This document shows positions 2,604-16,659 of a stretch of 16,659 nt of DNA, piece after piece. The notes under the pieces are model-generated. The model saw nothing but the letters and a program-made list of their open reading frames with translations. It was not told where the DNA came from and ran no database searches. How positions within the stretch are numbered: the first letter of the stretch is position 1; the number at the start of each line of letters is the position of its first letter. A program made the position numbers and the translations under genes. Source of the DNA: a virus (lineage: Duplodnaviria; Heunggongvirae; Uroviricota; Caudoviricetes); the IMG/VR virus record IMGVR_UViG_2548876696_000013. One strand, given 5' to 3'.

Positions 2604-4265
2604 TTACACCCCGCTAAATTCTTCCAGTTTCTGGCGGTGGCTGTCGCTTATATCAAAAGCAAAATCCTCATGCTCTGCCTGGAATGTACCAAACGCCATC
2701 AGCGCCGCTACGCTCGGGTCTATCTTGTTCGGTGATTTTTTCTTGTTCGGCTTGATATTGGCGTTCGCGTCACTCTGCATCACGACGTTACTCATCGACC
2801 AGGACAACACCGGATCGCCACGATGCACAATCACCCTGCGGTTAACAAAAACTTCGAACGATTTCGCCGCCGGACTGAATCTGAGGTAGGTTTGCGGGAA
2901 CGGCTCCACCTCAAAACCAGCCCCCTGTAATTGCGTCCTGAGATGCGTGGCGTTCCACGTATCAAAGCCCACCAGCCTGATATTAAATTTCTCCGCATCC
3001 TGCATGATGTCATCTCTGATCCGGTCGTAATCAATGCAGTCACCTGGCGTTGTGCGTATCCAGCCCGCTTTAGCCCACTGGCGATAGACAGCGCGGTTTT
3101 TATTGGCGGGGTTCTGTAGCTGGAACTCCGGCAGATAATGACGGGAAACCAGCATGATATTTTTACCGACCGGAAAGGCATAGCACACGCTGGAAATATC
3201 GCTGGTTGATGATAAGTCCAGCCCCGCGTAACACTCCTGCCCGTGTAAATCTTCCTCCGTGAACGTTCCGGCACACTCAGCCCATGCGCCGTTACCCATC
3301 CACGGGGTAGCCCCCTGGCACCAGATATTAAATCGCTTTGTCATCATCTCCACCCATTGCGACGGAATACCCCGCGCTTTCTGGATGGTTGAGGCCAGTT
3401 TTTCACGATCCACGGAAACATCGATGTTAGGGTTAGCCTTTATCCACATCGCCGGATCATCAACCTCGTTTTCGTCGTCCAGCTCGTAAATCAGCACAAA
3501 AATTGAATCGTTGACCTCTTCGCCGTCCAGGATCTGGCAGCAATAATCATAGTGCTGTTTACAGGTTGAAACGACGTTACTGCCCGATGTGGTAATGGCA
3601 AATAACAGCCCTTCGGGACGTGCGCCCATCCCCAGCTCAAGCGCGGAATAAACGCCGTTATCGGGGTGTAGGTGGTATTCGTCCACGATGGAAAGGCTGG
3701 GGTTTGTTCCCTCGATGGTTGCCGCTTTTGCTGCCAGCGGCTTTAACAGGCTGTTGCTTTTCGGGTGCATCACCTTGTGGGCCTGAATATTCACCCGCCT
3801 GCGTAACGGTCGGGATAAAAGGCACATCTGACGCGCATCATCAAAAACGATCCGCGCCTGGTCACGGCTCACCGCTGCGGTGTAAATATCCTGCTGCCCG
3901 TTCTCCATAATCAGAAACCAGTTAGCCAGAATCGCGGCGGTCGTGGATTTCGCATTTTTGCGCGGCACTTCGATAAAGGCGCTCGTGTATTTGCGCCGTC
4001 CGGTGGCCTTAACCTTAAAGCCGAGGATGCACGCAAAGGCGAACTGCTGCCACGGCTCCAGCTCAATGGGTCTGCCACGCATCGGCCCTTTTACGTGCGG
4101 GCACACCCTGGAAAAGGCAATAAACCGCTCCACAACCTCACGATCGAACGTGTAAAGGGGGCTTTCAAGGTCCGAAAAGTACCGTTTAACGGCCTGTTTC
4201 AGCCGTTTACAGGCCGGAATTTTGCCCGTTTTTACGTCTTCTGCGTACTTATTCCAGGCGGTCAA
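2604..4265 (-). CDS. terL: Terminase large subunit (553 aa)
   Basis: N-terminal ATPase with Walker A-like VPRKNAKST and a C-terminal nuclease region; its start overlaps the 3' end of the TerS gene. Confidence 0.9.
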   Translation of the reverse strand: MTAWNKYAEDVKTGKIPACKRLKQAVKRYFSDLESPLYTFDREVVERFIAFSRVCPHVKGPMRGRPIELEPWQQFAFACILGFKVKATGRRKYTSAFIEVPRKNAKSTTAAILANWFLIMENGQQDIYTAAVSRDQARIVFDDARQMCLLSRPLRRRVNIQAHKVMHPKSNSLLKPLAAKAATIEGTNPSLSIVDEYHLHPDNGVYSALELGMGARPEGLLFAITTSGSNVVSTCKQHYDYCCQILDGEEVNDSIFVLIYELDDENEVDDPAMWIKANPNIDVSVDREKLASTIQKARGIPSQWVEMMTKRFNIWCQGATPWMGNGAWAECAGTFTEEDLHGQECYAGLDLSSTSDISSVCYAFPVGKNIMLVSRHYLPEFQLQNPANKNRAVYRQWAKAGWIRTTPGDCIDYDRIRDDIMQDAEKFNIRLVGFDTWNATHLRTQLQGAGFEVEPFPQTYLRFSPAAKSFEVFVNRRVIVHRGDPVLSWSMSNVVMQSDANANIKPNKKKSPNKIDPSVAALMAFGTFQAEHEDFAFDISDSHRQKLEEFSGV

Positions 4266-4605
4266 GCTCGTCCTCTTCTTCTGTTTCCGGTGGATTTTTA
4301 CGGCGGCTTATCGGGTCAAAACCGAGCAAAGAGGCCATTTTTATCATCACTCTTTCAGCGTCGGATTTTGCGCTTAATGCGGGGTTTCTGCTCTCGCCGC
4401 CCTGACTGTTAACAATGCTGAACCCGCGCGCCGCAAGGTCTGCAACGGCTTTCCGGTAAATGGAGTAGTTGACACAATACAGTTCCAGATTGCTCCAGTC
4501 GGCGGGGGTCAGGTCTCCCCGTTCCGCAAGCTGCCTAGATTTTTCCCGCCACTGCTTCACGGCGATATCATCCAGGTAGGCGGGGGCTTTCGGTGGTCTT
4601 GCCAT
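4249..4605 (-). CDS. terS: Terminase small subunit, P27-like family (118 aa)
   Basis: Small basic protein immediately upstream of and overlapping TerL. Sequence pattern resembles the P27 small-terminase family (from memory). Confidence 0.75.
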   Translation of the reverse strand: MARPPKAPAYLDDIAVKQWREKSRQLAERGDLTPADWSNLELYCVNYSIYRKAVADLAARGFSIVNSQGGESRNPALSAKSDAERVMIKMASLLGFDPISRRKNPPETEEEDELDRLE

Positions 4606-5965: not shown

Positions 5966-7173
5966 TCCGGTTTTTCTCCCTCGCTGATTTTTACTTCCTG
6001 TTTCCATGCCTGGCTGAACTCATCACCACCATCACGCGGGGACAGCCCTTCACGTTCGCGGGCTTCGTTCGGGCACATAACGCCGGATTTGATACCGCGC
6101 TCATAGGTGGCAAAGCGTTCGCCAGGTGTGGCCCGTAACAGGTCCGCGCTGTCAAACTCCACCTGATACCGGATACCAGGTACAGGCGAGGCCACCAGCA
6201 GGGCGTTTTTTATCTGCTGCTCAAAGTTCGCCAGCCACGGGCGCATCGTCATGGTGAGAAATGCGCGGCTTGCCTCGCTGAAATTGCTGTAGGTGCTGTT
6301 GCTGTATTCCTGCAAAAAAATCGGCGAGACGTTGAACATTCGGGCGATGTCTTCAATGGTGAAGCGACGGGAGGCCAGCCATTCAGCATCCTGGTTACTC
6401 ATGCCCAGCTGCTGGTAACTCATGCCACCTTCAAGGATGGGCGTTTTTCCGGCGTTTCTGGCCCCTTTATAGCGTTCCAGTGCGGCTAATGCCTGTTTGC
6501 CCTTCACGCCGTCCAGCCATTCGCCTGACGTGATAACCCCTGCCGCCATCATGCCATCACGCATCACGCTCGCGCCGTGGCGTTGTTGGGCCAGCCCAAG
6601 CCCCAGCGATTCGCGGCAGATGGTTACAGGTGAGCGCCCCATAAAACCGTCATCCGTGGAGTAACGAAGGTGGAGAACCTCCCACGGTAAATAGTTGCGG
6701 GTGTTTCCGGTGTAGGCGTCAGTGATGCAGTAGCGCCAGTTATGCTCACCTGTCTGCTCCACGTTCACCGACTGCGGCGGGTAAGGATGTAAAGCCACCG
6801 GAAAACCATCACGCCCCCACTGAATCACCGCATAAGCATTACCGTTTAACAGGCAGTGGCGGATCATCATTCGCTTAAACTGGTAGGGGGTTTGCCATGC
6901 GTTCGGGCGCTCGTTGAGGATGTGATCGACCGGATGAGAATCAAGCCACTCGCGGGCCACCTTCCCCTTCTCATTGCGTACCAGGTACAGGTAACACGGC
7001 ATGGTAGCCACCGCCTCAGAGATGACCGTGACGGCGTTCATGACGGCGGGCAGTGATTCCGCTGTCCCCGATGATACGTACTCACCCGCCCCCGTGTTCG
7101 ATGTGCCAGCCAGCGCCATAAATTCATCAAGCGTCATGCTGCGCTGCTCTTTTTTTCTTCTGAAAGGCCACAT
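5962..7173 (-). CDS. Portal protein, HK97 family (403 aa)
   Basis: Size and position between the protease and adaptor genes; HK97-type portal sequence pattern from memory. Confidence 0.85.
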   Translation of the reverse strand: MWPFRRKKEQRSMTLDEFMALAGTSNTGAGEYVSSGTAESLPAVMNAVTVISEAVATMPCYLYLVRNEKGKVAREWLDSHPVDHILNERPNAWQTPYQFKRMMIRHCLLNGNAYAVIQWGRDGFPVALHPYPPQSVNVEQTGEHNWRYCITDAYTGNTRNYLPWEVLHLRYSTDDGFMGRSPVTICRESLGLGLAQQRHGASVMRDGMMAAGVITSGEWLDGVKGKQALAALERYKGARNAGKTPILEGGMSYQQLGMSNQDAEWLASRRFTIEDIARMFNVSPIFLQEYSNSTYSNFSEASRAFLTMTMRPWLANFEQQIKNALLVASPVPGIRYQVEFDSADLLRATPGERFATYERGIKSGVMCPNEAREREGLSPRDGGDEFSQAWKQEVKISEGEKPE

Positions 7174-7174
7174 A

Positions 7175-7747
7175 TCACACCCCCGCTAAATCCACCCACC
7201 AGCGGCGATTATCCGCACGCGGCATTTTTTCGGGGTGCTGCTCATACAGGGAACGGCGGGCCAGCTCCACGCCGGAATCAGGGTAAGCCGGAACGGATGT
7301 AACGGTAATTTCGTACAGTTCCGCCACCAGCACGGTGCGCACGCATGGTTCTGTTGTGGTATCCCATACATCCTTACGGGAACGAAAGCCAAAGCTCATG
7401 CCGGATATATCACCACGTTTAACCAGTTCGATAACGTCCCGCCCTGTGCTGGTATCCGGTGGGGTCAGTTCAAAGCGTAACCCTGTTTCGTCCTCTTCCA
7501 GTTTCAGCGTGCCGGAACGGGTACGCCCCAGTAACATGCTGTGGTCATGCTCATACAGGCCGCGAACGTCATTACCCGCCGCAAGCCATTCAGTAAACGC
7601 TCCCCGCTGGAATTTTTCGTAAAACTCACCCCATAACAGTTCTGAAAGCTTATCCCAGCGAACAACGTAGCCCGTCAGCGTACCGGCTCCGCTGGTGGTG
7701 ATTTCCGATGACCGGATTTCCATACTCTTCATAATTTTTTCACCCAT
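7175..7747 (-). CDS. Prohead maturation protease, HK97 family (start ambiguous among ATGs at 7747, 7732 and 7723)
   Basis: Conserved protease-family pattern (GYVVRWDK ... HD ... LLGRT ... GLRFE ... ISGMSFGF). The first ATG lies inside the upstream terminator tract, so the true start is probably one of the next two. Confidence 0.8.
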   Translation of the reverse strand: MGEKIMKSMEIRSSEITTSGAGTLTGYVVRWDKLSELLWGEFYEKFQRGAFTEWLAAGNDVRGLYEHDHSMLLGRTRSGTLKLEEDETGLRFELTPPDTSTGRDVIELVKRGDISGMSFGFRSRKDVWDTTTEPCVRTVLVAELYEITVTSVPAYPDSGVELARRSLYEQHPEKMPRADNRRWWVDLAGV

Positions 7748-7756
7748 AAAACACTA

Positions 7757-7776
7757 AAGGGGCTTTTAAGCCCCTT
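7757..7776 (-). terminator. Intra-operon hairpin (GGGGCTT-AAGCCCC) followed by a U-rich tract, between the capsid and protease genes
   Basis: Hairpin directly seen in sequence. On the minus-strand transcript it is followed by UUUAGUGUUUUAU. Likely a partial terminator that sets capsid-to-downstream stoichiometry. Confidence 0.5.
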
Positions 7777-7786
7777 CTGTATGCTG

Positions 7787-8944
7787 TTAATCGTCGTCCT
7801 GTGGCAGTTCCAGAATCTTGATCGCGTTCGAATCCACCACGCCACCGCCTAAATATTTCTGCGTGAAAATTTTGATGAAGCCCGGCTCTGTGAGGTTGTC
7901 CGGTCTGGTGCGAACACCTGTTTCGTGATCAACAATGTAGTAACCGCGTTTGAAGTCACCCAGGGCAATAACGTTATCAGGCATAAACTCCAGATATTCG
8001 ACCGGAAGGCCCAGCAACGTATCAGGATCACCCGCCTGTAAACGGTCGCGCCAGATGTAATCACCGTTCGCGTTCTTCACCTTCTGAAGTTTTGCCGCCG
8101 TCGTGGAGTTAACCACCCAGACCGCGTTTTTGCGGTATTTTTTACGTAATGCAAATTTCAGGTCGATCAACGGGTCCGCAGATGTCCACGCCAGAGATTC
8201 GGAAGGTTTAATTACCTGCAACGTACCAAAATCACGCTCTTTGTCGTTCTTCTCTGCACGGGGTACGGATAAAAAGCCTTTTGCTTTTTTGTCACCGTCG
8301 CCCACAACCAGATCGCTTTCTTCGGTTTCCGTGAAGGTGTCGCCAATCTCACCCGTCAGCCATGAAAGGATGTCCACATCGGAAAAATCCACGATTTCCT
8401 GTGTGGTGCGCGGGTACGCATAGACCGGATACAGCTTAATGCTCACCTCGTTAATCTGCGGGGTGCTGGTCTGTTCGCGTGTCTTACCCTCTTCACCGTG
8501 GTTAACGGTCGCACCGCCAGCGGAAACAAGCTGCTTAAACTCGTTGCTGCTGATTTTCTTCACGGTACAGATGCGGCGCATGGTGGACTCATCCGCCAGC
8601 ATTCGCATGATTTCGGTGTTCAGCTCGGGGATAACGGTATAACCACCATCAGCGGGAACGCCTGTACTTAATGCGCGGGTTTCACCCGTCAGAATGTAGT
8701 TTCGTAGTTCTGCGGGGTCAGTGGTCTGACTGCTTTTACCTGGCTTGCTGCGCTCTTCGTCTGCAATGGCTTCAAGGCGGGAAATGTCTTTATCGAGGGA
8801 TTCAGCTTTAGCGCGTAATTCGTCAAATTTTGCGCCCTCAGCATCGTTAAGACTGCGGTTTTCTTTTTCCGCGTTCTCCAGCATGTCGCGCATCTGATTT
8901 TTAATGGCGGTTTTCTGCTGGCGTAATTCGATTATTCTCGGCAT
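7787..8944 (-). CDS. Major capsid protein, HK97 fold, with N-terminal coiled-coil delta (scaffold) domain (385 aa)
   Basis: N-terminal 100 aa are charged and helical (delta-domain-like), followed by a capsid-like body. First gene of the head operon. Confidence 0.9.
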   Translation of the reverse strand: MPRIIELRQQKTAIKNQMRDMLENAEKENRSLNDAEGAKFDELRAKAESLDKDISRLEAIADEERSKPGKSSQTTDPAELRNYILTGETRALSTGVPADGGYTVIPELNTEIMRMLADESTMRRICTVKKISSNEFKQLVSAGGATVNHGEEGKTREQTSTPQINEVSIKLYPVYAYPRTTQEIVDFSDVDILSWLTGEIGDTFTETEESDLVVGDGDKKAKGFLSVPRAEKNDKERDFGTLQVIKPSESLAWTSADPLIDLKFALRKKYRKNAVWVVNSTTAAKLQKVKNANGDYIWRDRLQAGDPDTLLGLPVEYLEFMPDNVIALGDFKRGYYIVDHETGVRTRPDNLTEPGFIKIFTQKYLGGGVVDSNAIKILELPQDDD

Positions 8945-10719: not shown

Positions 10720-12129
10720 TTACAGCGGGCGCACGTCATCACCGTCAATAACGATTACGCCATCATTTTCCAGCTTGTACAGCCAGCGCCGGAAGTGCTT
10801 CATCTCATACCCCAGCTTTTTCATATCATCGCGGAGAAGGGCGATAGTGCACGCCTCCCCGTGTGCTGTTCGTGTTCTGATGCACTGCCATAGCGCGGCG
10901 TGATTCTCCGTCTTGTTCCCTGCCTCCTCGATGCGCTCCAGTTCAACGGGAGGGCGCGGCTTATCCACCACCACCAGCGACGTGATTAACTCCCCGTCAG
11001 CGTCGGTAAAAAGCTCCACCACCCGCAAATCATAGGCAGCCTCTTTGAGTTCCTCCGCGTCCTTCATTTTGGTGCATGAGATAACCAGCGCTTCGCTTCC
11101 TGCGTCCTCCCTGCGTATCCGGTATTCAGCATCCAGTGATGCACGAAATGCACTGGAACCGCGCGCGCCTTTCGTCTCATCCTTGCCGGAATGGTGAACC
11201 ACCAGCACCGTGGCCCCTGTGCGCCGTTTCAGTTCGTCACACCCACGGATAAACGCCCCCATGTCACGGGAATCATTTTCGTCATTGCCGCCAAAGCAAC
11301 GCGCCAGCGTGTCCAGAATAATCATGCGAACAGGTTTACCCGTTTCCCGCTCAACCTGGCTGGCAGCAATAACCAGTTCATCAACATCAAGCGGGACAGC
11401 CGGAAAGATGGGACGGTTTACAAGGTAAAGATTTTTCACCTGCTCCCCGTGCACAACCTCCCAGGCTTTTACACGACGCGGAACGCCAATACCGCCTTCA
11501 CCAACCACATAGAGAACAGCGCCATGCGCCACCCTGCGGCCTCCCCACTGGCGGCCCGTGGAAACGTGACACGCCCACGATCCGGCAAGGAATGATTTAT
11601 AGGAACCGCTCGCCCCGTATATGCTGCAAAGCGACGATGCCGGAATAATCCCCTTTACCACGTAATCAAGCTGTGTGTCGTATCCGGTAGATCCAACGCT
11701 CATCGGTAGCGTGGTTTTTCGCTGGGGGATTTTTTTCATGACCAGGCTTTCCCCGCGTTCCCATGCCTCCCTAAGCCGTGGAAGCTGGTCGTTCCATTCC
11801 TCCAGCAATTCGAAATTTTCAGAAAGTAGCCGCGCCTCCTGGACTCCGGCGATCGCCAGTTTCGTGGCGATGGTTAACAGCTGCGGCTCTTCAATATTTC
11901 CGGCGCGTATCACCGTCGCCCTGTATCGCCCATCATCAACAATCTGGAGGTTATCCAGTTCGCTTAACTGATAACGCCCCAGATAAACGGGAGGGACTGG
12001 ATCGCCTGCTTTTTTGGCCTGTGCAATGATGTAGTGCTCTGCAAATGAGTGCGCATTATTCCCCGCGAAAATAATTGCTTCGGTGTATTTGTCTTTCGGT
12101 AATAGTTTTACGTTCGGTGCAAGTTTCAT
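10720..12129 (-). CDS. Replication initiation ATPase / helicase-like protein, RecA-fold AAA type (469 aa)
   Basis: Walker A motif GASGSYKS, Walker B-like MIILDTLARCF, and a C-terminal putative winged-helix region. Position immediately upstream of the iterons. Confidence 0.8.
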   Translation of the reverse strand: MKLAPNVKLLPKDKYTEAIIFAGNNAHSFAEHYIIAQAKKAGDPVPPVYLGRYQLSELDNLQIVDDGRYRATVIRAGNIEEPQLLTIATKLAIAGVQEARLLSENFELLEEWNDQLPRLREAWERGESLVMKKIPQRKTTLPMSVGSTGYDTQLDYVVKGIIPASSLCSIYGASGSYKSFLAGSWACHVSTGRQWGGRRVAHGAVLYVVGEGGIGVPRRVKAWEVVHGEQVKNLYLVNRPIFPAVPLDVDELVIAASQVERETGKPVRMIILDTLARCFGGNDENDSRDMGAFIRGCDELKRRTGATVLVVHHSGKDETKGARGSSAFRASLDAEYRIRREDAGSEALVISCTKMKDAEELKEAAYDLRVVELFTDADGELITSLVVVDKPRPPVELERIEEAGNKTENHAALWQCIRTRTAHGEACTIALLRDDMKKLGYEMKHFRRWLYKLENDGVIVIDGDDVRPL

Positions 12130-12425
12130 TTTTTACCCCTGAATACGTTCAACATCTTTCTTATTTCCTGAATATTGGCGCGTGCTTTCTCCCTGCTGGT
12201 GGGCACGTTACGCGGTACAGCCTGCACCAGAGAAAAATCACGGTCGAACTGATAAACAGGCATAACGCAATCATATTCGTAGCCTTCACGGCGGTAAGTT
12301 ACGCGCCGTTCCTCCACGCCCTTAATCATTACCGTGCCGCCGTACTGGTCGCGGTAAATATCACCGCGCGTAAATTTAGGGTGAGTGTTGCCACTGGCAG
12401 TTAAGCCAGGATATTTAAGTTTCAT
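12126..12425 (-). CDS. DUF4222-like small protein (99 aa)
   Basis: The pattern GDIYRDQYGGTVMIKGVEERRVTYRREGYEYDCVMPVYQF resembles the DUF4222 family often found next to satellite or prophage replication genes (from memory). ATGA overlap with the rep gene. Confidence 0.55.
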   Translation of the reverse strand: MKLKYPGLTASGNTHPKFTRGDIYRDQYGGTVMIKGVEERRVTYRREGYEYDCVMPVYQFDRDFSLVQAVPRNVPTSREKARANIQEIRKMLNVFRGKK

Positions 12426-12430
12426 TATTT

Positions 12431-12658
12431 TTATTCTCCGGTGTGGGGCGCTTTATTATTTTCGTGAATTGCCATCGCCTTATCCAGTTCATCAATTACA
12501 GGCGATAGTAATGTCTGAACGGCGGCAAATATTAATGATGCAGGTTCTCCACCATCTTCCGGCACGTCTATTAACTTAATTAACAGCGCATTCATTTCAC
12601 GCGCTTTAATTAATGCGTTTTCAGAATGAATAAGAACATCATAGGGTATTTTATGCAT
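12431..12658 (-). CDS. Hypothetical protein (75 aa)
   Basis: ORF whose start overlaps the stop of the upstream small gene by 8 nt (ATGCATAA). No family recognised. Confidence 0.5.
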   Translation of the reverse strand: MHKIPYDVLIHSENALIKAREMNALLIKLIDVPEDGGEPASLIFAAVQTLLSPVIDELDKAMAIHENNKAPHTGE

Positions 12659-12821
12659 GACTCACCCCCTGACGAATACGGGCGACAAAAATCAGATGTG
12701 CGCGCGGCAACTGGGCGCGGGCTTCGCGTTCAGTGGCTGCGGTAACGGTGTAAATATCAATGCTGCTGTGGTGGCACTGCATAAAGCGCCAGACAAAGTA
12801 AGGGCGTGCGGATACAGCCAT
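12651..12821 (-). CDS. Small protein, paralog B (56 aa core; possibly Icd-like). A longer 150-aa form starting at 13115 is also possible
   Basis: Shares FVWRF, TEREAR and ARIRQG motifs with paralog A. A synonymous codon difference in the shared ARIRQG segment supports coding on this strand. Start is ambiguous. Confidence 0.45.
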   Translation of the reverse strand: MAVSARPYFVWRFMQCHHSSIDIYTVTAATEREARAQLPRAHLIFVARIRQGVSHA

Positions 12822-13107
12822 GTGAAAGGCTCCCAGATGAAATTTAAGGAGTCTCGCTACTACGCTGCTAAACGGGGTGGCGAGACGTAACAGGGTTAGC
12901 AGACTGGTCATCTGGAAACCAGCGAGCGCAAAGGCTCCCCCGTTACGCCCCGCCATAATGCGGGTATGGGTAGGTTTACGGACACAAAAAAACCGCTTAT
13001 CGGATATGGGCGGCTGTCCGCCAGATGTATTCAGGCTGCTAAACCCGGTCGCCATGTGGGCGACGGGTGAAGCATACAGCCCCGTTATAATTTTTTGCAA
13101 GCGGCTT

Positions 13108-13305
13108 TTACTCATGATGTGACCCCTGACGAATACGAGCGGCAAATACAGCAACACAACCGGACGGGCAACGGTTACGCGCTTCGCGTTCCGTCCAGGC
13201 GGTGACGTGGATGATTTGAGATTCTCCGGCACTCAGGGCCAGAAAACGCCACACAAAGGCCGTTTGTGTGTGTACAAGGTGTGGTATATGATTTACGGCA
13301 ACCAT
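13108..13305 (-). CDS. Small protein, paralog A (65 aa); possible host cell-division-inhibitor Icd-like protein
   Basis: Strong SD (GAGGAG 6 nt upstream of the ATG). Paralogous to 12651-12821. The Icd-like call rests on an uncertain memory of the family pattern. Confidence 0.5.
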   Translation of the reverse strand: MVAVNHIPHLVHTQTAFVWRFLALSAGESQIIHVTAWTEREARNRCPSGCVAVFAARIRQGSHHE

Positions 13306-13336
13306 AACGGCTCCTCGTTTACGTTGTTGGTTAGAA

Positions 13337-13377
13337 GCCCCGTATGTGTTCCAGCACTGCGGGGTTTCGTCTTTTCT
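13337..13377 (+). terminator. Hairpin (ccccg / cgggg stem, conserved 17-nt loop) with a U-rich tail; plus-strand terminator-like element, copy 1
   Basis: Seen in sequence. A near-identical element, including the loop, occurs at 14083-14124. Confidence 0.45.
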
Positions 13378-13394
13378 GTACCTTGCATCAACAA

Positions 13395-13476
13395 GGTGTA
13401 AGACACAATGTAAAATAACGGTGTCTTACACGTCAACCCTTCAAAATATTTTTTTTTCGTGTATATTGTCTTACAC
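13395..13476. promoter_or_regulatory. Divergent promoter/operator region with three GTCTTACAC sites (one inverted pair and one direct copy)
   Basis: GGTGTAAGACAC at 13395-13406 is the reverse complement of GTGTCTTACAC at 13421-13431; a third copy lies at 13467-13476. A possible sigma70 promoter (TTCAAA, 16-nt spacer, TATATT) sits at 13440-13467. Confidence 0.5.
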
Positions 13477-13497
13477 CAAAAACATGAGGGGTTAAAC

Positions 13498-13677
13498 ATG
13501 GCAACGGGGCCAAAGAATGCAAAATCACAATCTGTAACTGCACGTATTGCCCATGAAATTATTGAAGGCATGGAGAACGTGAAAGAAGAAGGTGAAAGCA
13601 CGGGGCAGTTTATAAACGCAGCCATGCGCGGCGAAATCAAACGCCGCCAGCGTCGCAAGGCCAAAGAATCAGAATAA
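13498..13677 (+). CDS. Ribbon-helix-helix (CopG/Arc/MetJ-like) DNA-binding protein (59 aa); candidate repressor
   Basis: GAGGGG SD 7 nt upstream of the ATG. Beta-strand/helix/helix pattern (QSVTARIAHEIIEGMENVKEEGESTGQFINAAMRGEI) and a basic C-terminal tail. Confidence 0.55.
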   Translation: MATGPKNAKSQSVTARIAHEIIEGMENVKEEGESTGQFINAAMRGEIKRRQRRKAKESE

Positions 13678-13734
13678 TCACTATCAGCGCCGTGGTGTGA
13701 GGTACTACGGCGCATTGCTTTACAGGGCAGTATC

Positions 13735-13962
13735 ATGACCAACAACACACTATCACCAATACAAGACACGCAAACGCAAGATGATGAAATCATCCGGCAA
13801 AGGCAGTCAGAAGCCTGCGCCAGACTTGAGGAAGAACTAACCAGAACAAAAATACCACCACCAGCGCCGCGCTTAGTGCCACCAGAAAAATTTGCCCTTG
13901 AAGATTTTGTCGATAAATACCCACGGCGGCTTAAATCCGGCAAAAACCGACCGCCAGGATGA
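13735..13962 (+). CDS. Small hydrophilic protein (75 aa), partner of the RHH protein, module 1
   Basis: Paralogous to 14420-14623 (both start MTN; shared motif F-x-L-[ED]-[DE]-F-[VL]-x-K-Y-[PS]-R). Weak SD. Confidence 0.4.
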   Translation: MTNNTLSPIQDTQTQDDEIIRQRQSEACARLEEELTRTKIPPPAPRLVPPEKFALEDFVDKYPRRLKSGKNRPPG

Positions 13963-14082
13963 GTGCACAAAACCGAACTATGAAACGGATTATTCCGTTT
14001 CCGGGGCGTTTGTGTGTGTATAAAGAGTAAGCTATGCTCTTTTATAGCCATAATCGTTACCTCAATTAATGGTTTGGTTAGA

Positions 14083-14124
14083 CGCCCCGTATGTGTTCCC
14101 ATCACTGCGGGGCGTTGTTTTTTG
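14083..14124 (+). terminator. Rho-independent terminator-like hairpin (CGCCCCG / CGGGGCG) plus TTGTTTTTTG, copy 2
   Basis: 7-bp stem, 18-nt loop nearly identical to the loop at 13343-13359, then a T-rich tract. Confidence 0.5.
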
Positions 14125-14130
14125 TGCTAG

Positions 14131-14164
14131 TTGTGTGTAATGTGTATATACACATAAACACATT
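14131..14164. promoter_or_regulatory. Operator-like 16-bp perfect palindrome ATGTGTATATACACAT (14140-14155) overlapping a putative -10 element
   Basis: Perfect palindrome seen directly. Possible promoter TTGTGC (14122-14127), 17-nt spacer, TATATA (14145-14150). Confidence 0.45.
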
Positions 14165-14182
14165 ATATGGGGTGTAATTGAC

Positions 14183-14362
14183 GTGTCAACACACAAGAAT
14201 GAAAGGCGTGGTAATCCTCCTTTCCAGTTCCGTTTAGATCCTGACTTACGGGAAAAGATGGAAAAAGCACAACAACAAGACGGTGATGACTCTTTAGCTG
14301 CTTGGATAAAACGAATAATCCGAAAAGAATTACAGCAACGCGGTATTGAACCCAAAGAATAA
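14183..14362 (+). CDS. Arc-like ribbon-helix-helix protein (59 aa, GTG start)
   Basis: Absent from the supplied ORF track because it is only 59 aa. GGGGTG SD 8 nt upstream of GTG at 14183. The pattern PPFQFRLDPDLREKMEKAQQQDGDDSLAAWIKRIIRKEL matches the Arc/RHH fold. Confidence 0.5.
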   Translation: MSTHKNERRGNPPFQFRLDPDLREKMEKAQQQDGDDSLAAWIKRIIRKELQQRGIEPKE

Positions 14363-14419
14363 AAAACATCAGCGCCGTGGCGTGAGGAACTCCGGCGCAT
14401 TGCTTTACAGGTACACACA

Positions 14420-14623
14420 ATGACCAATAAAGAATCAACCAATACACCATCGCAAAAAACGAACAGAGAGCACGAAAATATGGCGCTCGAGCATGAATCA
14501 GAAAGATTCGCTCCATGCGCTTTTGTCCTTGATGAGTTTCTAAAAAAATATTCACGTTCTGAACGGATGAAAATGGCAGCACAATACGGCCCCAACAAGC
14601 AAGGTAATTGCCCACCAGCCTGA
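14420..14623 (+). CDS. Small hydrophilic protein (67 aa), partner of the RHH protein, module 2
   Basis: Paralog of 13735-13962; preceded by the same conserved hairpin element. Confidence 0.4.
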   Translation: MTNKESTNTPSQKTNREHENMALEHESERFAPCAFVLDEFLKKYSRSERMKMAAQYGPNKQGNCPPA

Positions 14624-14697
14624 TAGCGGCTATCATTCCCGTGCTTATGTTTGGGATCACATACACATAAGGCGCAGCAGGTTAATTGTTCAGAAAG

Positions 14698-14726
14698 GCG
14701 GCTCCATATCGGGGCCGCTTTTTTTA
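14698..14726 (+). terminator. Strong Rho-independent terminator (GCGGCTCC-atatc-GGGGCCGC then T7)
   Basis: 8-bp GC-rich stem with one G-U pair, 5-nt loop, seven T's. Ends the plus-strand modules and lies convergent with the alpA 3' end. Confidence 0.75.
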
Positions 14727-14866
14727 TGCCTGAAAAACCCCAATTTTGTTGTTTTTCAGTTTCACCAGGGCGAACGAATCCCCGCCCACGTTCGGGCGCA
14801 TATTCAATCTTCATAGTTATATCTCTGTATTAGTGGATGTGTGGCGACTGTGTGCCGCCAGTCTTT

Positions 14867-15055
14867 TTAGTGAACTGCCTTGCAGCTATCCTTCCAGGCC
14901 AAAACCTCAGATAAAGACCAGCCAACAGAACGCCCACCAAGTTTACGACGTGATGGGAATTGTCCGGCCTTTTCCAGGCGGTAGCGGCATGAGCGGCTAA
15001 GGCCTGTTAGCTTTTCGCATTCTTTTTCACGTATAAACCGATCAGTGCTTAACAC
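14867..15055 (-). CDS. alpA: AlpA-family phage regulatory protein / excisionase-like HTH (62 aa, GTG start)
   Basis: Motif KLTGLSRSCRYRLEKAGQFPSRRKLGGRSVGWSLSEVLAWK is typical of the AlpA/Vis family. SD AAGGGGG lies 7 nt upstream of the GTG. Confidence 0.85.
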   Translation of the reverse strand: MLSTDRFIREKECEKLTGLSRSCRYRLEKAGQFPSRRKLGGRSVGWSLSEVLAWKDSCKAVH

Positions 15056-15214
15056 TATTGCCCCCTTTCGTTTCTTAAAGAGTTATTTCGTGTTCTATTG
15101 CGTTGGGATGTGTCTGATTGTGTCAGGATGATTCAGAGTTGGCAAATGTTGGTGTCGCATGGTTTACAGAAAGAGGAATAATCAGGATAAAATCATTTAA
15201 ATTCATATCAATAC

Positions 15215-15246
15215 AAAGGCATAAAATCTTGTTTTATGCCTTTTTT
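15215..15246. terminator. Bidirectional hairpin terminator between int and alpA (AAAGGCATAAAA-tcttg-TTTTATGCCTTT then T6)
   Basis: 12-bp stem seen in sequence. T-tract on the plus strand and an A/U-rich flank on the minus strand. Confidence 0.6.
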
Positions 15247-15337: not shown

Positions 15338-15383
15338 TTGTTCGTGATTGTGTCACGTTGTTGCACATTGTTTCACGTTGTAT
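15338..15383 (-). promoter_or_regulatory. Five exactly 10-bp-phased NNACAA hexamers (minus-strand orientation) with CGTG/TGTG spacers
   Basis: Plus-strand TTGTTC, TTGTGT, TTGTTG, TTGTTT and TTGTAT at 15338, 15348, 15358, 15368 and 15378. Located 47-92 bp downstream of the int stop codon. Confidence 0.55.
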
Positions 15384-15429: not shown

Positions 15430-16659
15430 TTATTTTATTCTGGTTACTGGTAGCGTGGTTACGTTTTCATGTGTTCCCGCCAGTATCTCCAACCGCTCCA
15501 CCCACATATCAAGCGCATTGCGTTTCGCATCAATATAGCGGGAATGGTTGTACACGCGTTGCATTCCTGGCATCTGGTGGCCTGTAAGCTGCTCCACGAC
15601 GTGAGGATCAACGCCTAAATCGTTCAGCATGGTTGTAAAGGTGCGCCGGATGTCATGCAGTGACCAGTGAGGGTGTTTAAGCCTCCTGTGCACCAATCTG
15701 CCGTACTGCGATACGCTGGTTTCCTGTTTCACTTCCCCCAGCAATAAGCCCGTGTGCCTGTTCTGCTCCACCAGCTGCGTGACGAACGGCAGTATCGCTT
15801 CCGGTATGGGCCGGAATATGGCTACCTTCGTTTTGCTGTGCTCCTTCGGAACGGTCCAGAGCATTTCGGTAAAATCCCACTCGCCGATCTCCGATAACCT
15901 CAGTTCTACTGTCCGGCATCCGAAAACAATCAGGAGGCGGATTAGTGCGACGTAGTAAGGGGAAAATATTTTTTTGTCCAGTGCCTGCAATAATTCGCCA
16001 AGTTCTTTGTTACTTAAGACACGCTCACTTATATCCGGTTTTTTCCCAACGTCCGCCACACTCATATCATCAAGAACGTTGCTGATTGCATAGCGCCGCT
16101 TCCTGCAGAACTTAAGCGCCTGCTTGCATGTCTGTAGCAGGAACCCGGCGGAAACAGGGGCTTTCTTTGCCACCCGATCAAAACAGGCCAGCCAGTGCCG
16201 TAGCTCGCATTTATCCAGCGGCATAGGGCCAATGTGCTGTATTACGTGATTATTTAGCCGCTTTTTCAGTGGGTCATAATCCACACGGTTTTCCTTTGCG
16301 TACGACTCAAGCCAGTAGGTGAGCGCATCGCCAACCGTTACCGGCTTTAACGCTTCCTGTACGGTGTAATTCATTTCATGACGTGGATTTTTCCCCTCTG
16401 CCAGCCATGCGCGACACTGGGCGGCTTTTTCCCTGGCTGATTTCAGGCTCAGATCAGGATAATTTCCCAGCTTAATGCGTTCCGGTGGTGCCCCCCTTCC
16501 CGTTCCGGCCCTGTAAGTGAAATACCAGGTTAAAAGGCCACTGGTTGAATGCCTGACGCTCAGGTTTCCACCGTCATTAAGAAAGGCTGTTTTTTGGGCG
16601 GGTGTGCCGTTGATTTTCCTCAGCTGTGTATCGCTCAGTTTGTTAAGTGCTCTGCTCAT
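15430..16659 (-). CDS. int: Tyrosine site-specific integrase, P4-like (409 aa; start codon is the last three bases of the window)
   Basis: N-terminal arm-binding-like region (LSDTQLRKI ... DGGNLSVRHSTSGLLTWYFTYR) and a C-terminal catalytic region with conserved R, HxxR and Y (HDIRRTF ... YNHSRYID). The upstream RBS is outside the window, so the true start could lie further out. Confidence 0.9.
   Translation of the reverse strand: MSRALNKLSDTQLRKINGTPAQKTAFLNDGGNLSVRHSTSGLLTWYFTYRAGTGRGAPPERIKLGNYPDLSLKSAREKAAQCRAWLAEGKNPRHEMNYTVQEALKPVTVGDALTYWLESYAKENRVDYDPLKKRLNNHVIQHIGPMPLDKCELRHWLACFDRVAKKAPVSAGFLLQTCKQALKFCRKRRYAISNVLDDMSVADVGKKPDISERVLSNKELGELLQALDKKIFSPYYVALIRLLIVFGCRTVELRLSEIGEWDFTEMLWTVPKEHSKTKVAIFRPIPEAILPFVTQLVEQNRHTGLLLGEVKQETSVSQYGRLVHRRLKHPHWSLHDIRRTFTTMLNDLGVDPHVVEQLTGHQMPGMQRVYNHSRYIDAKRNALDMWVERLEILAGTHENVTTLPVTRIK

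Follow-up and report, generated by a model that had tools for sequence, protein, structure and literature searches.

The region between a small RHH gene and the replication operon of a satellite island raises the question of which protein reads the three short repeats found there, and what its binding would do to the two promoters around them. The window, that is, the whole stretch of DNA analysed (16,659 nucleotides), encodes the 3' part of phoQ at its left end and, beyond this, an island on the minus strand. Judged by its gene set, the island is a capsid-forming PICI (cf-PICI) of the EcCIEDL933 type: int, alpA, a replication gene and its own capsid, protease, portal, connector, HNH, TerS and TerL genes are present, each with a Pfam match. 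No tail genes were found in the ORF list of this window, which ends inside int. The insertion between phoQ and int corresponds to the roxA/phoQ site, used by EcCICFT073 and by the EcCIEDL933-type islands. Over the regulatory region, the nearest complete E. coli genome is only 91.7% identical.

The PICIs and cf-PICIs of Gram-negative bacteria are widespread satellites and mobilise virulence and defence genes. AlpA is known as the activator in the Gram-negative PICIs, and their global repressor has been called 'unclear' (PMC6092414). The module described here is of importance because no repressor has yet been identified for Gram-negative satellites of this class. If the RHH protein is that repressor, it would provide a handle on the silence of the island, explain the mosaic 'immunity' types and give a function to an uncharacterised family. 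The relevant part of the island has two tandem small-gene modules on the plus strand, between alpA and the minus-strand operon:

10720-12129, minus strand: RepA-like helicase gene (rep)
12126-12425, minus strand: DUF4222 gene
between DUF4222 and Icd-like B, minus strand: 75-aa gene
12651-12821, minus strand: Icd-like B
13108-13305, minus strand: Icd-like A, the first operon gene (NF033153, 64.8 bits)
13498-13677, plus strand: RHH gene of module 1 (59 aa, YlcI/YnfO family)
14183-14362, plus strand: RHH gene of module 2 (59 aa; phrog_228 'Arc-like repressor', E = 1.5e-6)
14867-15055, minus strand: alpA (PF05930, 65 bits), upstream of both modules on the operon strand
15430-16659: integrase gene, at the right end of the island

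The operon runs from Icd-like A through Icd-like B, the 75-aa gene and DUF4222 to the RepA-like helicase, its remainder beyond Icd-like A spanning 10720-12836. Both this order and the first start codon at 13305 had been given correctly in the initial annotation, although a C4 antisense RNA and its target within the operon were missed. Farther left lie the genes for SSB, capsid, prohead protease, portal, head completion and connector proteins, HNH, TerS and TerL. Between Icd-like A and the first RHH gene, the following sites and promoters were located:

13396-13406: O1, GTGTAAGACAC, inverted relative to O2
13407-13436, minus strand: predicted leftward promoter of the Icd-like/rep operon, TTGACG (13436-13431), 18-nt spacer, TACATT (13412-13407)
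13421-13431: O2, GTGTCTTACAC
13440-13467, plus strand: predicted rightward promoter of the RHH gene, TTCAAA (13440-13445), 16-nt spacer, TATATT (13462-13467)
13466-13476: O3, TTGTCTTACAC, a 10/11 match to the 11-mer

By direct reading as well as by a repeat finder, O1 and O2 are exact reverse complements 14 nt apart, and the perfect 11-bp inverted pair that had been described is thus real. The third copy, said to overlap a plausible -10 element, is also found there; it begins at the last base(s) of TATATT. Shifted by one base, TGTCTTACACC (13467-13477) matches the reverse complement of 13395-13405 exactly. Over the window as a whole, the 11-mer with at most one mismatch occurs at the three sites, within 81 bp, and as one stray match at 8479. 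The chance expectation is 0.15 per 16.6-kb window, and four matches were reached in 0 of 200 shuffles. Allowing two mismatches gave no further matches above chance anywhere in the window, which rules out additional operators elsewhere in the island, i.e., a wider regulon. It was also observed that an inverted repeat, ACCTTG-N6-CAAGGT (13380-13398), abuts O1, and that most related loci carry related CACCTTGA...TCAAGGTG repeats or AAGGTG-core-CACCTT palindromes. This repeat may be an extended O1, an extra half-site or the 5' stem of the operon transcript.

The promoters come from a consensus scan, so that they and their transcript starts are predictions. With respect to these promoters, O2 occupies the spacer of the leftward one and abuts its -35; O1 starts one base past the leftward -10 and covers the predicted start of the icd-operon transcript; and the first bases of O3 are the last bases of the rightward -10. 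In a fixed-register display of 34 loci, the conserved columns were TCAA[g] (the reverse complement of the -35), a T-rich tract, GTATACTG (the -10 of the RHH promoter running into O3), the Shine-Dalgarno sequence and the ATG. The leftward -35, TTGA[CAG], and the 'TA' of its -10 are likewise conserved columns, while the operator cores are not conserved. In all loci, the bases that follow O2 are [GCT]TCAA, which is TTGA[CGA] on the opposite strand. The -10 of the RHH promoter is TATACT in most relatives, preceded by the T-rich tract, and the consensus of O3 across loci reads gTATACTG-N5-CACC.

The protein encoded next to these sites belongs to an uncharacterised family. The module 1 protein matches the NCBIfam model YlcI_YnfO_N (NF041551) with 64.8 bits against a cut-off of 30, as well as phrog_949, a family of unknown function. 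Its predicted topology is that of the RHH superfamily, i.e., a β-strand (residues 10-17, SQSVTARI) followed by two helices (19-28 and 35-58) with a G-x-S/T/N turn between them. In a monomer model, the strand has no secondary structure, as is expected when it is unpaired. Against Pfam-A at E <= 0.1, neither RHH protein of the window matched any family, including the Arc family; a PDB profile search gave 0 matches at E <= 10, and Foldseek gave none. An alignment to Arc by hhalign was in register but weak (E 9e-4, probability 22%); it places KSQSVTARIAHEI on Arc KMPQFNLRWPREV, so that residues 12, 14 and 16 correspond to Q9, N11 and R13 of Arc. These three are the base-contacting residues of Arc. 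Among 108 database relatives across Enterobacterales, Arg16 is invariant and residues 12-15 are among the most variable. In the literature, no functional study of YlcI/YnfO/DUF3950 proteins was found, nor any description of an RHH repressor in these islands.

The family name by itself does not imply the module. In K-12, ylcI (4252-4446 of sequence L037; its RefSeq record is annotated DUF3950) has an RHH-like sequence; it lies in prophage DLP12 close to the cos region, with nohD as its divergent neighbour, and no three-site layout was seen when the sequence upstream of it was read. This context is a different one, and the family is therefore used in more than one.

The question of what reads the sites was approached by a comparison across genomes. 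A scan of other Enterobacterales, with one genome per species, yielded 32 loci from at least 15 genera. In all of them, as well as in E. coli W24 and EcCICFT073, three GTG-N5-CAC sites are found in a shared layout. Counted from the RHH start codon, O3 lies at -32 and O2 at about -77 (-76 to -78) in all loci; O1 lies at -98 to -113, in either orientation. The O1-O2 spacing differs among classes (22-26 or 35 bp), and since both this spacing and the orientation of O1 vary, no defined cooperative geometry is claimed. An Icd-like gene is the first divergent gene in nearly all related loci, and the wider order rep, DUF4222, Icd-like, RHH, alpA, int is recurrent.

The 5-bp core of the sites varies between loci and is near-identical among the three sites of any one locus, with a mean of 0.58 differences out of 5. 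Between loci that share residues 12 and 14, which are predicted to contact bases, the cores differ at 0.32 of 5 positions, versus 3.63 of 5 between loci in which these residues differ; the permutation test of core against residues was not corrected for phylogeny, and related loci are non-independent samples. Altogether, about 13 specificity classes of β-strand and core were recognised, among them the following (strand, then core):

SQSVTARI, TCTTA
S[KR]KLEARV, TCAGC
SQMTT[VI]R[IV], AAATA
SQQLNARF, AATCG
SLQ[VL]SVRL, AACAC
SKRFDVRV, TCGGA

Two further comparisons serve as tests that avoid simple shared descent. IMG/VR was scanned for the O2 and -35 of the window, and about 27 RHH-module loci were obtained. 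All of these encode SQS[VL]TARI and have identical O1 and O3 sites, and the C-terminal halves of their RHH proteins vary. About half of the 16-mer matches in IMG/VR were set aside, as their context was unrelated. The other comparison is with E. coli W24, where the flanks are 98-100% identical to the window on both sides (AlpA and the downstream 75-aa protein 100%, Icd-like A 98%). Between them, about 290 bp differ, from inside the leader hairpin through O1-O3 to codon 45 of the RHH gene, and the divergent cassette is only about 55-60% identical (window 13230-13760 versus 3631-4165 of sequence L001). From the window to W24, all three cores change from TCTTA to TCAGC, jointly with a change of the β-strand from SQSVTARI to SKKLEARV. 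This mosaic points to specificity cassettes that would be exchanged by recombination. Taken together, the covariation of core and β-strand, the IMG/VR loci and the W24 swap speak strongly, if indirectly, for the RHH protein as the reader of these sites. In EcCICFT073, the module is of the module 1 type and divergent from the Icd-like, DUF4222 and primase genes; its RHH protein, annotated only as 'YlcI/YnfO family protein', has the strand SQALKARV and falls into the TGGCC class, and its sites are GTGTGGCCCAC (O1 and O2) and CTGTCCCCCAC (O3).

In view of the above, the three repeats are very probably the binding sites of a small RHH protein that represses the replication operon as well as its own gene. 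With a probability of about 0.7, we take 13395-13477 as the operator core in a bidirectional promoter region that the RHH protein represses, and as part of a specificity ('immunity-like') cassette of this cf-PICI. The device is most likely an autoregulated repressor-operator cassette controlling the head of the early/replication operon. The role of repressor, proposed earlier for the first RHH protein, gains support from the placement of the sites on both promoters, from the covariation of core and β-strand over about 60 loci and from the W24 swap; sequence comparison strongly suggests that the RHH protein binds the sites, represses the Icd-like/rep operon and represses its own gene. Binding, the sign of regulation, the stoichiometry and any link to helper-phage induction are what we infer.

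As for the mechanism, each 11-bp GTG-N5-CAC site would probably be bound by a single dimer of the 59-aa YlcI/YnfO-family protein, whose two-stranded β-ribbon would read the variable 5-bp core; the invariant RHH residues probably contact the constant GTG/CAC flanks. Occupancy of O2, in the spacer, and of O1, at the transcript start, would block RNA polymerase at the leftward promoter of Icd-like A, C4, Icd-like B, DUF4222 and rep. Occupancy of O3, at the -10 and start, would limit the synthesis of the RHH protein itself.

Two alternatives would take the RHH protein out of this scheme in whole or in part. The repeats might be bound by another factor (AlpA, the integrase, a helper-phage or host protein) or be replication iterons, with the RHH gene merely adjacent. 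In favour of this, different repeats of the TGATTGTGTCA type near alpA and int indicate that other DNA-binding proteins act in the island. However, the core tracks the RHH residues over about 60 loci, and the sites are fixed relative to the promoter hexamers rather than to rep. In W24, moreover, AlpA and the 75-aa protein are unchanged (100%) and Icd-like A nearly so (98%), yet the cores and the RHH β-strand change together. Such a reading is very improbable. Equally improbable is a pairing of the RHH protein with the product of the small downstream gene, as a defence or toxin-antitoxin-like system in which the repeats would serve autoregulation only. Two of the three sites are on the divergent promoter, not on the RHH promoter, and the downstream gene belongs to no Pfam, NCBIfam or PADLOC family; PADLOC gave no defence family, and Pfam gave no family for the small downstream partners of the two RHH proteins. 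Among related loci, the downstream gene was found only in W24, and it is this lack of conservation that led to the rejection of the toxin-antitoxin idea.

For module 2, a palindrome in the equivalent position had been pointed out, and the features of this module are as follows:

14134-14189: control region, with a palindrome within an array of TGTGTA/TACACA half-sites
14162-14189, minus strand: predicted leftward promoter with perfect consensus, TTGACA (14189-14184), 16-nt spacer, TATAAT (14167-14162)

The 16-bp palindrome, ATGTGTATATACACAT (14140-14155), is exact as claimed. It is analogous to the module 1 sites but part of a different system, as the RHH protein of module 2 is of the Arc-like subfamily and, of the truncated divergent Icd-like gene, a start-codon remnant at 14053 is all that is left; the palindrome is therefore not a copy from the same system. 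The module 2 protein matches YlcI_YnfO_N only weakly (20 bits, below the cut-off of 30). Across 80 relatives, in which the strand PPFQFRLD is invariant, the conserved form of the operator is TGTAATGTGT..ACACATTACA, and the exact 16-bp palindrome and the perfect TTGACA-16-TATAAT are features of the lineage of the window's module 2. Transcription from the leftward promoter of this module would first enter the truncated Icd-like remnant and then run antisense into module 1; the GTG with which the module 2 RHH gene starts overlaps the -35 of this promoter. In SS17 (O157:H7), whose island is of the EcCIEDL933 type, only a module 2-type module was found, with the strand PPYQMRLP and two GGTAATTACC palindromes upstream. 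The 57-aa Arc-like RHH gene of SS17 (2755-2989 of sequence L034) is unannotated, and PGAP has called an 'Icd-like, incomplete' pseudogene on the opposite strand. RHH modules thus occur in both laboratory models, EcCICFT073 and the EcCIEDL933 type, for which SS17 was examined.

Apart from the RHH module, the operon carries what is, from its sequence, an RNA immunity cassette of the P1 immI/P4 CI type. Two elements make up this second layer of control, and a third element lies in the leader:

12873-12960, minus strand: C4 antisense RNA (Rfam RF01695, 71.6 bits against a gathering score of 45)
13028-13077, minus strand: a1b1 target (RF03163, 44.4 bits, just under the gathering score of 46.7)
13334-13368: conserved hairpin with the operators on one side and the Icd-like ribosome-binding site on the other, terminator-like on the plus strand

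The C4 RNA and the a1b1 target lie between the two Icd-like genes, inside the operon; an isrK-like match (12986-13064, minus strand) overlaps the target, and a PGAP-style long call for Icd-like B overlaps the C4 cassette. Since the C4 RNA sits in the operon, the expression of rep here would also be under a P1/P4-type RNA layer. C4-family RNAs have been noted in Gram-negative PICIs (PMC10111431). The cassette is present only in the window and W24 and is absent from 32 of the 34 RHH-module loci, which rules it out as a part of the core module and makes it an add-on layer outside the RHH-operator module.

The leader hairpin has 9 predicted pairs, 7 of them with compensatory changes among 30 loci, and a fold z-score of -4.4. 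RNA from the plus strand is favoured, since the minus strand would contain 11 C-A cells against 1 G-U; together with the T-rich tail, these counts fit a terminator on the plus strand. Such a hairpin could end a short cis-antisense RNA over the Icd-like start or terminate the transcript of the upstream module. A corresponding hairpin is found at 14081-14116.

The main challenge to the preferred reading, that of an RHH repressor acting through O1-O3, comes from AlpA. Induction of EcCICFT073 and EcCIEDL933 requires AlpA, and in the former its overexpression is sufficient; a requirement for alpA was also reported in the cf-PICI paper. A reporter fusion to 'ORF3', downstream of alpA, was AlpA-dependent. 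The published inducer pathway runs through AlpA and has been explained without any repressor. Transcription probably enters the operon from the alpA side as well, and the minus strand there carries two consecutive long open frames:

14062-14814, minus strand: antisense frame beginning 53 nt past alpA and stopping 9 nt before the ATG at 14053
13293-14105, minus strand: antisense frame, in frame with the ATG at 14053, with its stop 10 nt past the Icd-like A start codon

Overall, the two (13293-14814) connect the alpA end with the Icd-like A start and pass across both RHH modules. In EcCICFT073, there is a single ORF of 428 aa (6767-8053 of sequence L036), which begins 53 nt past alpA, crosses the RHH gene and the operators in antisense and ends in the Icd-like domain; it is probably the published 'ORF3', an equation that we infer. 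The antisense frame has a constant phase and is stop-free within the RHH gene in 36 of 36 modules, as compared with 1 of 36 for each of the other two antisense frames. Across the operator region, roughly 185 nt, the same frame is open in 28 of 36, and the other two minus-strand frames in none (0/36, with 4.8-5.0 stops on average). In 19 of 36, no stop interrupts it in the 300 nt that were scored 3' of the RHH gene. No Pfam domain was found in the long antisense ORFs and no PHROG match for the two ORFs of the window; for the EcCICFT073 ORF, PHROG gave only the Icd-like C-terminus and a Bro-N/Ant remnant. As the middle parts match no protein family, the long antisense ORFs are not claimed to be one.

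The simplest reading of these frames, as a hypothesis, is that translation of AlpA-dependent transcripts proceeds through the antisense RHH module, the RHH-controlled promoter then being an internal, basal one, and that such translation would offer a way to switch the repressor off. Along these lines, it is possible, though doubtful as a full account, that the RHH protein binds its sites merely as a local regulator. It would keep the internal Icd-like promoter and its own gene low, and transcription from the alpA side would induce the island; translated across both RHH modules, this transcription would bypass the promoter under repression, and the RHH gene, which lies antisense to it, may be silenced as a result. 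The AlpA requirement and the ORF3 fusion, the course of the EcCICFT073 ORF, the frame conservation and the lack of operator copies elsewhere in the island are all in its favour. On the other hand, the identity of ORF3 with the 428-aa ORF is our own reading, a plus-strand terminator, possibly bidirectional, stands between alpA and module 2, and local regulation is compatible with the RHH protein being a true immunity repressor rather than exclusive of it. A bolder proposal, likewise tentative, is that of an excludon-like switch, in which the RHH gene and its operators lie antisense inside a selected stop-free frame from alpA to the Icd-like gene. As long as the island is quiescent, the internal operon promoter would be shut by the RHH protein. 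Upon helper infection, AlpA-driven transcription would be translated across the module and hence protected from Rho; it would override the repressed promoter and, through collision or antisense pairing, end the synthesis of the repressor. Independent immunity of co-resident satellites would then be provided by the roughly 13 interchangeable RHH/operator specificities. If true, the 'missing' repressor of Gram-negative PICIs would be found in this switch, and the behaviour of AlpA as an activator would be explained.

Returning to the putative RHH repressor, its gene and the replication operon diverge from a shared operator region, which is the layout of a PICI master repressor of the Stl/Rpr type. 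The rule invoked for this in the initial annotation, that PICIs typically have a divergent repressor, holds for the Gram-positive PICIs; for the Gram-negative ones, the literature calls a global repressor 'unclear' and describes AlpA as an activator (PMC6092414). As a 'master repressor', the RHH protein is only a candidate, given the absence of operator copies elsewhere in the island, the second layer provided by the C4 RNA and the probable transcription from the alpA side.

One close likeness is to immI of P22 (Arc/Mnt, Pant/Pmnt), where small RHH proteins bind operators on divergent promoters, one of them in the -35/-10 spacer, with autoregulation and an additional antisense-RNA layer on the controlled operon. 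Here, however, the protein is of the YlcI/YnfO family (without a Pfam Arc match), the sites are three 11-bp GTG-N5-CAC sequences rather than 21-bp operators, and the controlled operon encodes satellite Icd-like and replication proteins, not an antirepressor. The Stl/Rpr (stl-str) repressors of SaPIs and other Gram-positive PICIs share the arrangement of a repressor gene divergent from the satellite replication operon, with operators between. They are much larger HTH proteins inactivated by helper-phage proteins, in contrast to the 59-aa RHH protein of this island, where the activator AlpA is required and no anti-repressor is known. Similar to OR1-OR3 of the lambdoid cI/cro region, three related operators lie between divergent promoters, and as in lambdoid heteroimmunity, many specificity types arise through co-variation of the recognition element of the repressor with its operators, in cassettes swapped between conserved flanks; the proposed reader here is nonetheless an RHH rather than an HTH protein, the setting is a satellite island, and no second antagonistic regulator was identified.

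With the omega repressor of inc18 plasmids, the module would share one RHH dimer per short repeat, in direct or inverted orientation (O1 varies in orientation here), and the array of TGTGTA half-sites in module 2 is heptad-like. Unlike the contiguous heptads of omega, the sites of module 1 are 14-35 bp apart on individual promoter elements. As in P1 immI (C4 RNA, icd, ant) and P4 CI RNA, the operon of the window has a C4-family RNA, an a1b1 target and Icd-like genes, but the cassette is lacking in 32 of the 34 RHH-module loci and is hence an add-on. The kind of device is thus classical; the family, the roughly 13 specificities and the place in Gram-negative satellites appear to be undescribed. 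The coupled variation of protein and operator also offers a natural series of RHH recognition codes.

A few minor elements were seen around the modules. Direct repeats of the form TGATTGTGTCA(C/G)G at 15108-15127, upstream of alpA, and at 15338-15377, in the int-alpA spacer, are candidate AlpA or integrase arm-type sites. In several related loci, the Rfam int-alpA RNA matches this spacer, and the window scores below its threshold. A strong hairpin with a T-run (AAAGGCATAAAA/TTTTATGCCTTT) lies at 15215-15243 on the minus strand, 3' of int. Another strong hairpin, GGCGGCTCC...GGGGCCGC followed by T7, lies on the plus strand at about 14690-14725, 3' of the module 2 genes and within the antisense open frame. 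Lastly, a 12-bp stem-loop (GCGCCGTGG...CTACGGCGC) is situated immediately 3' of both RHH stop codons (13687-13713 and 14371-14397). It is conserved at the nucleotide level between the otherwise unrelated modules and also in EcCICFT073 and SS17, and lies within the conserved right flank common to the modules and W24.
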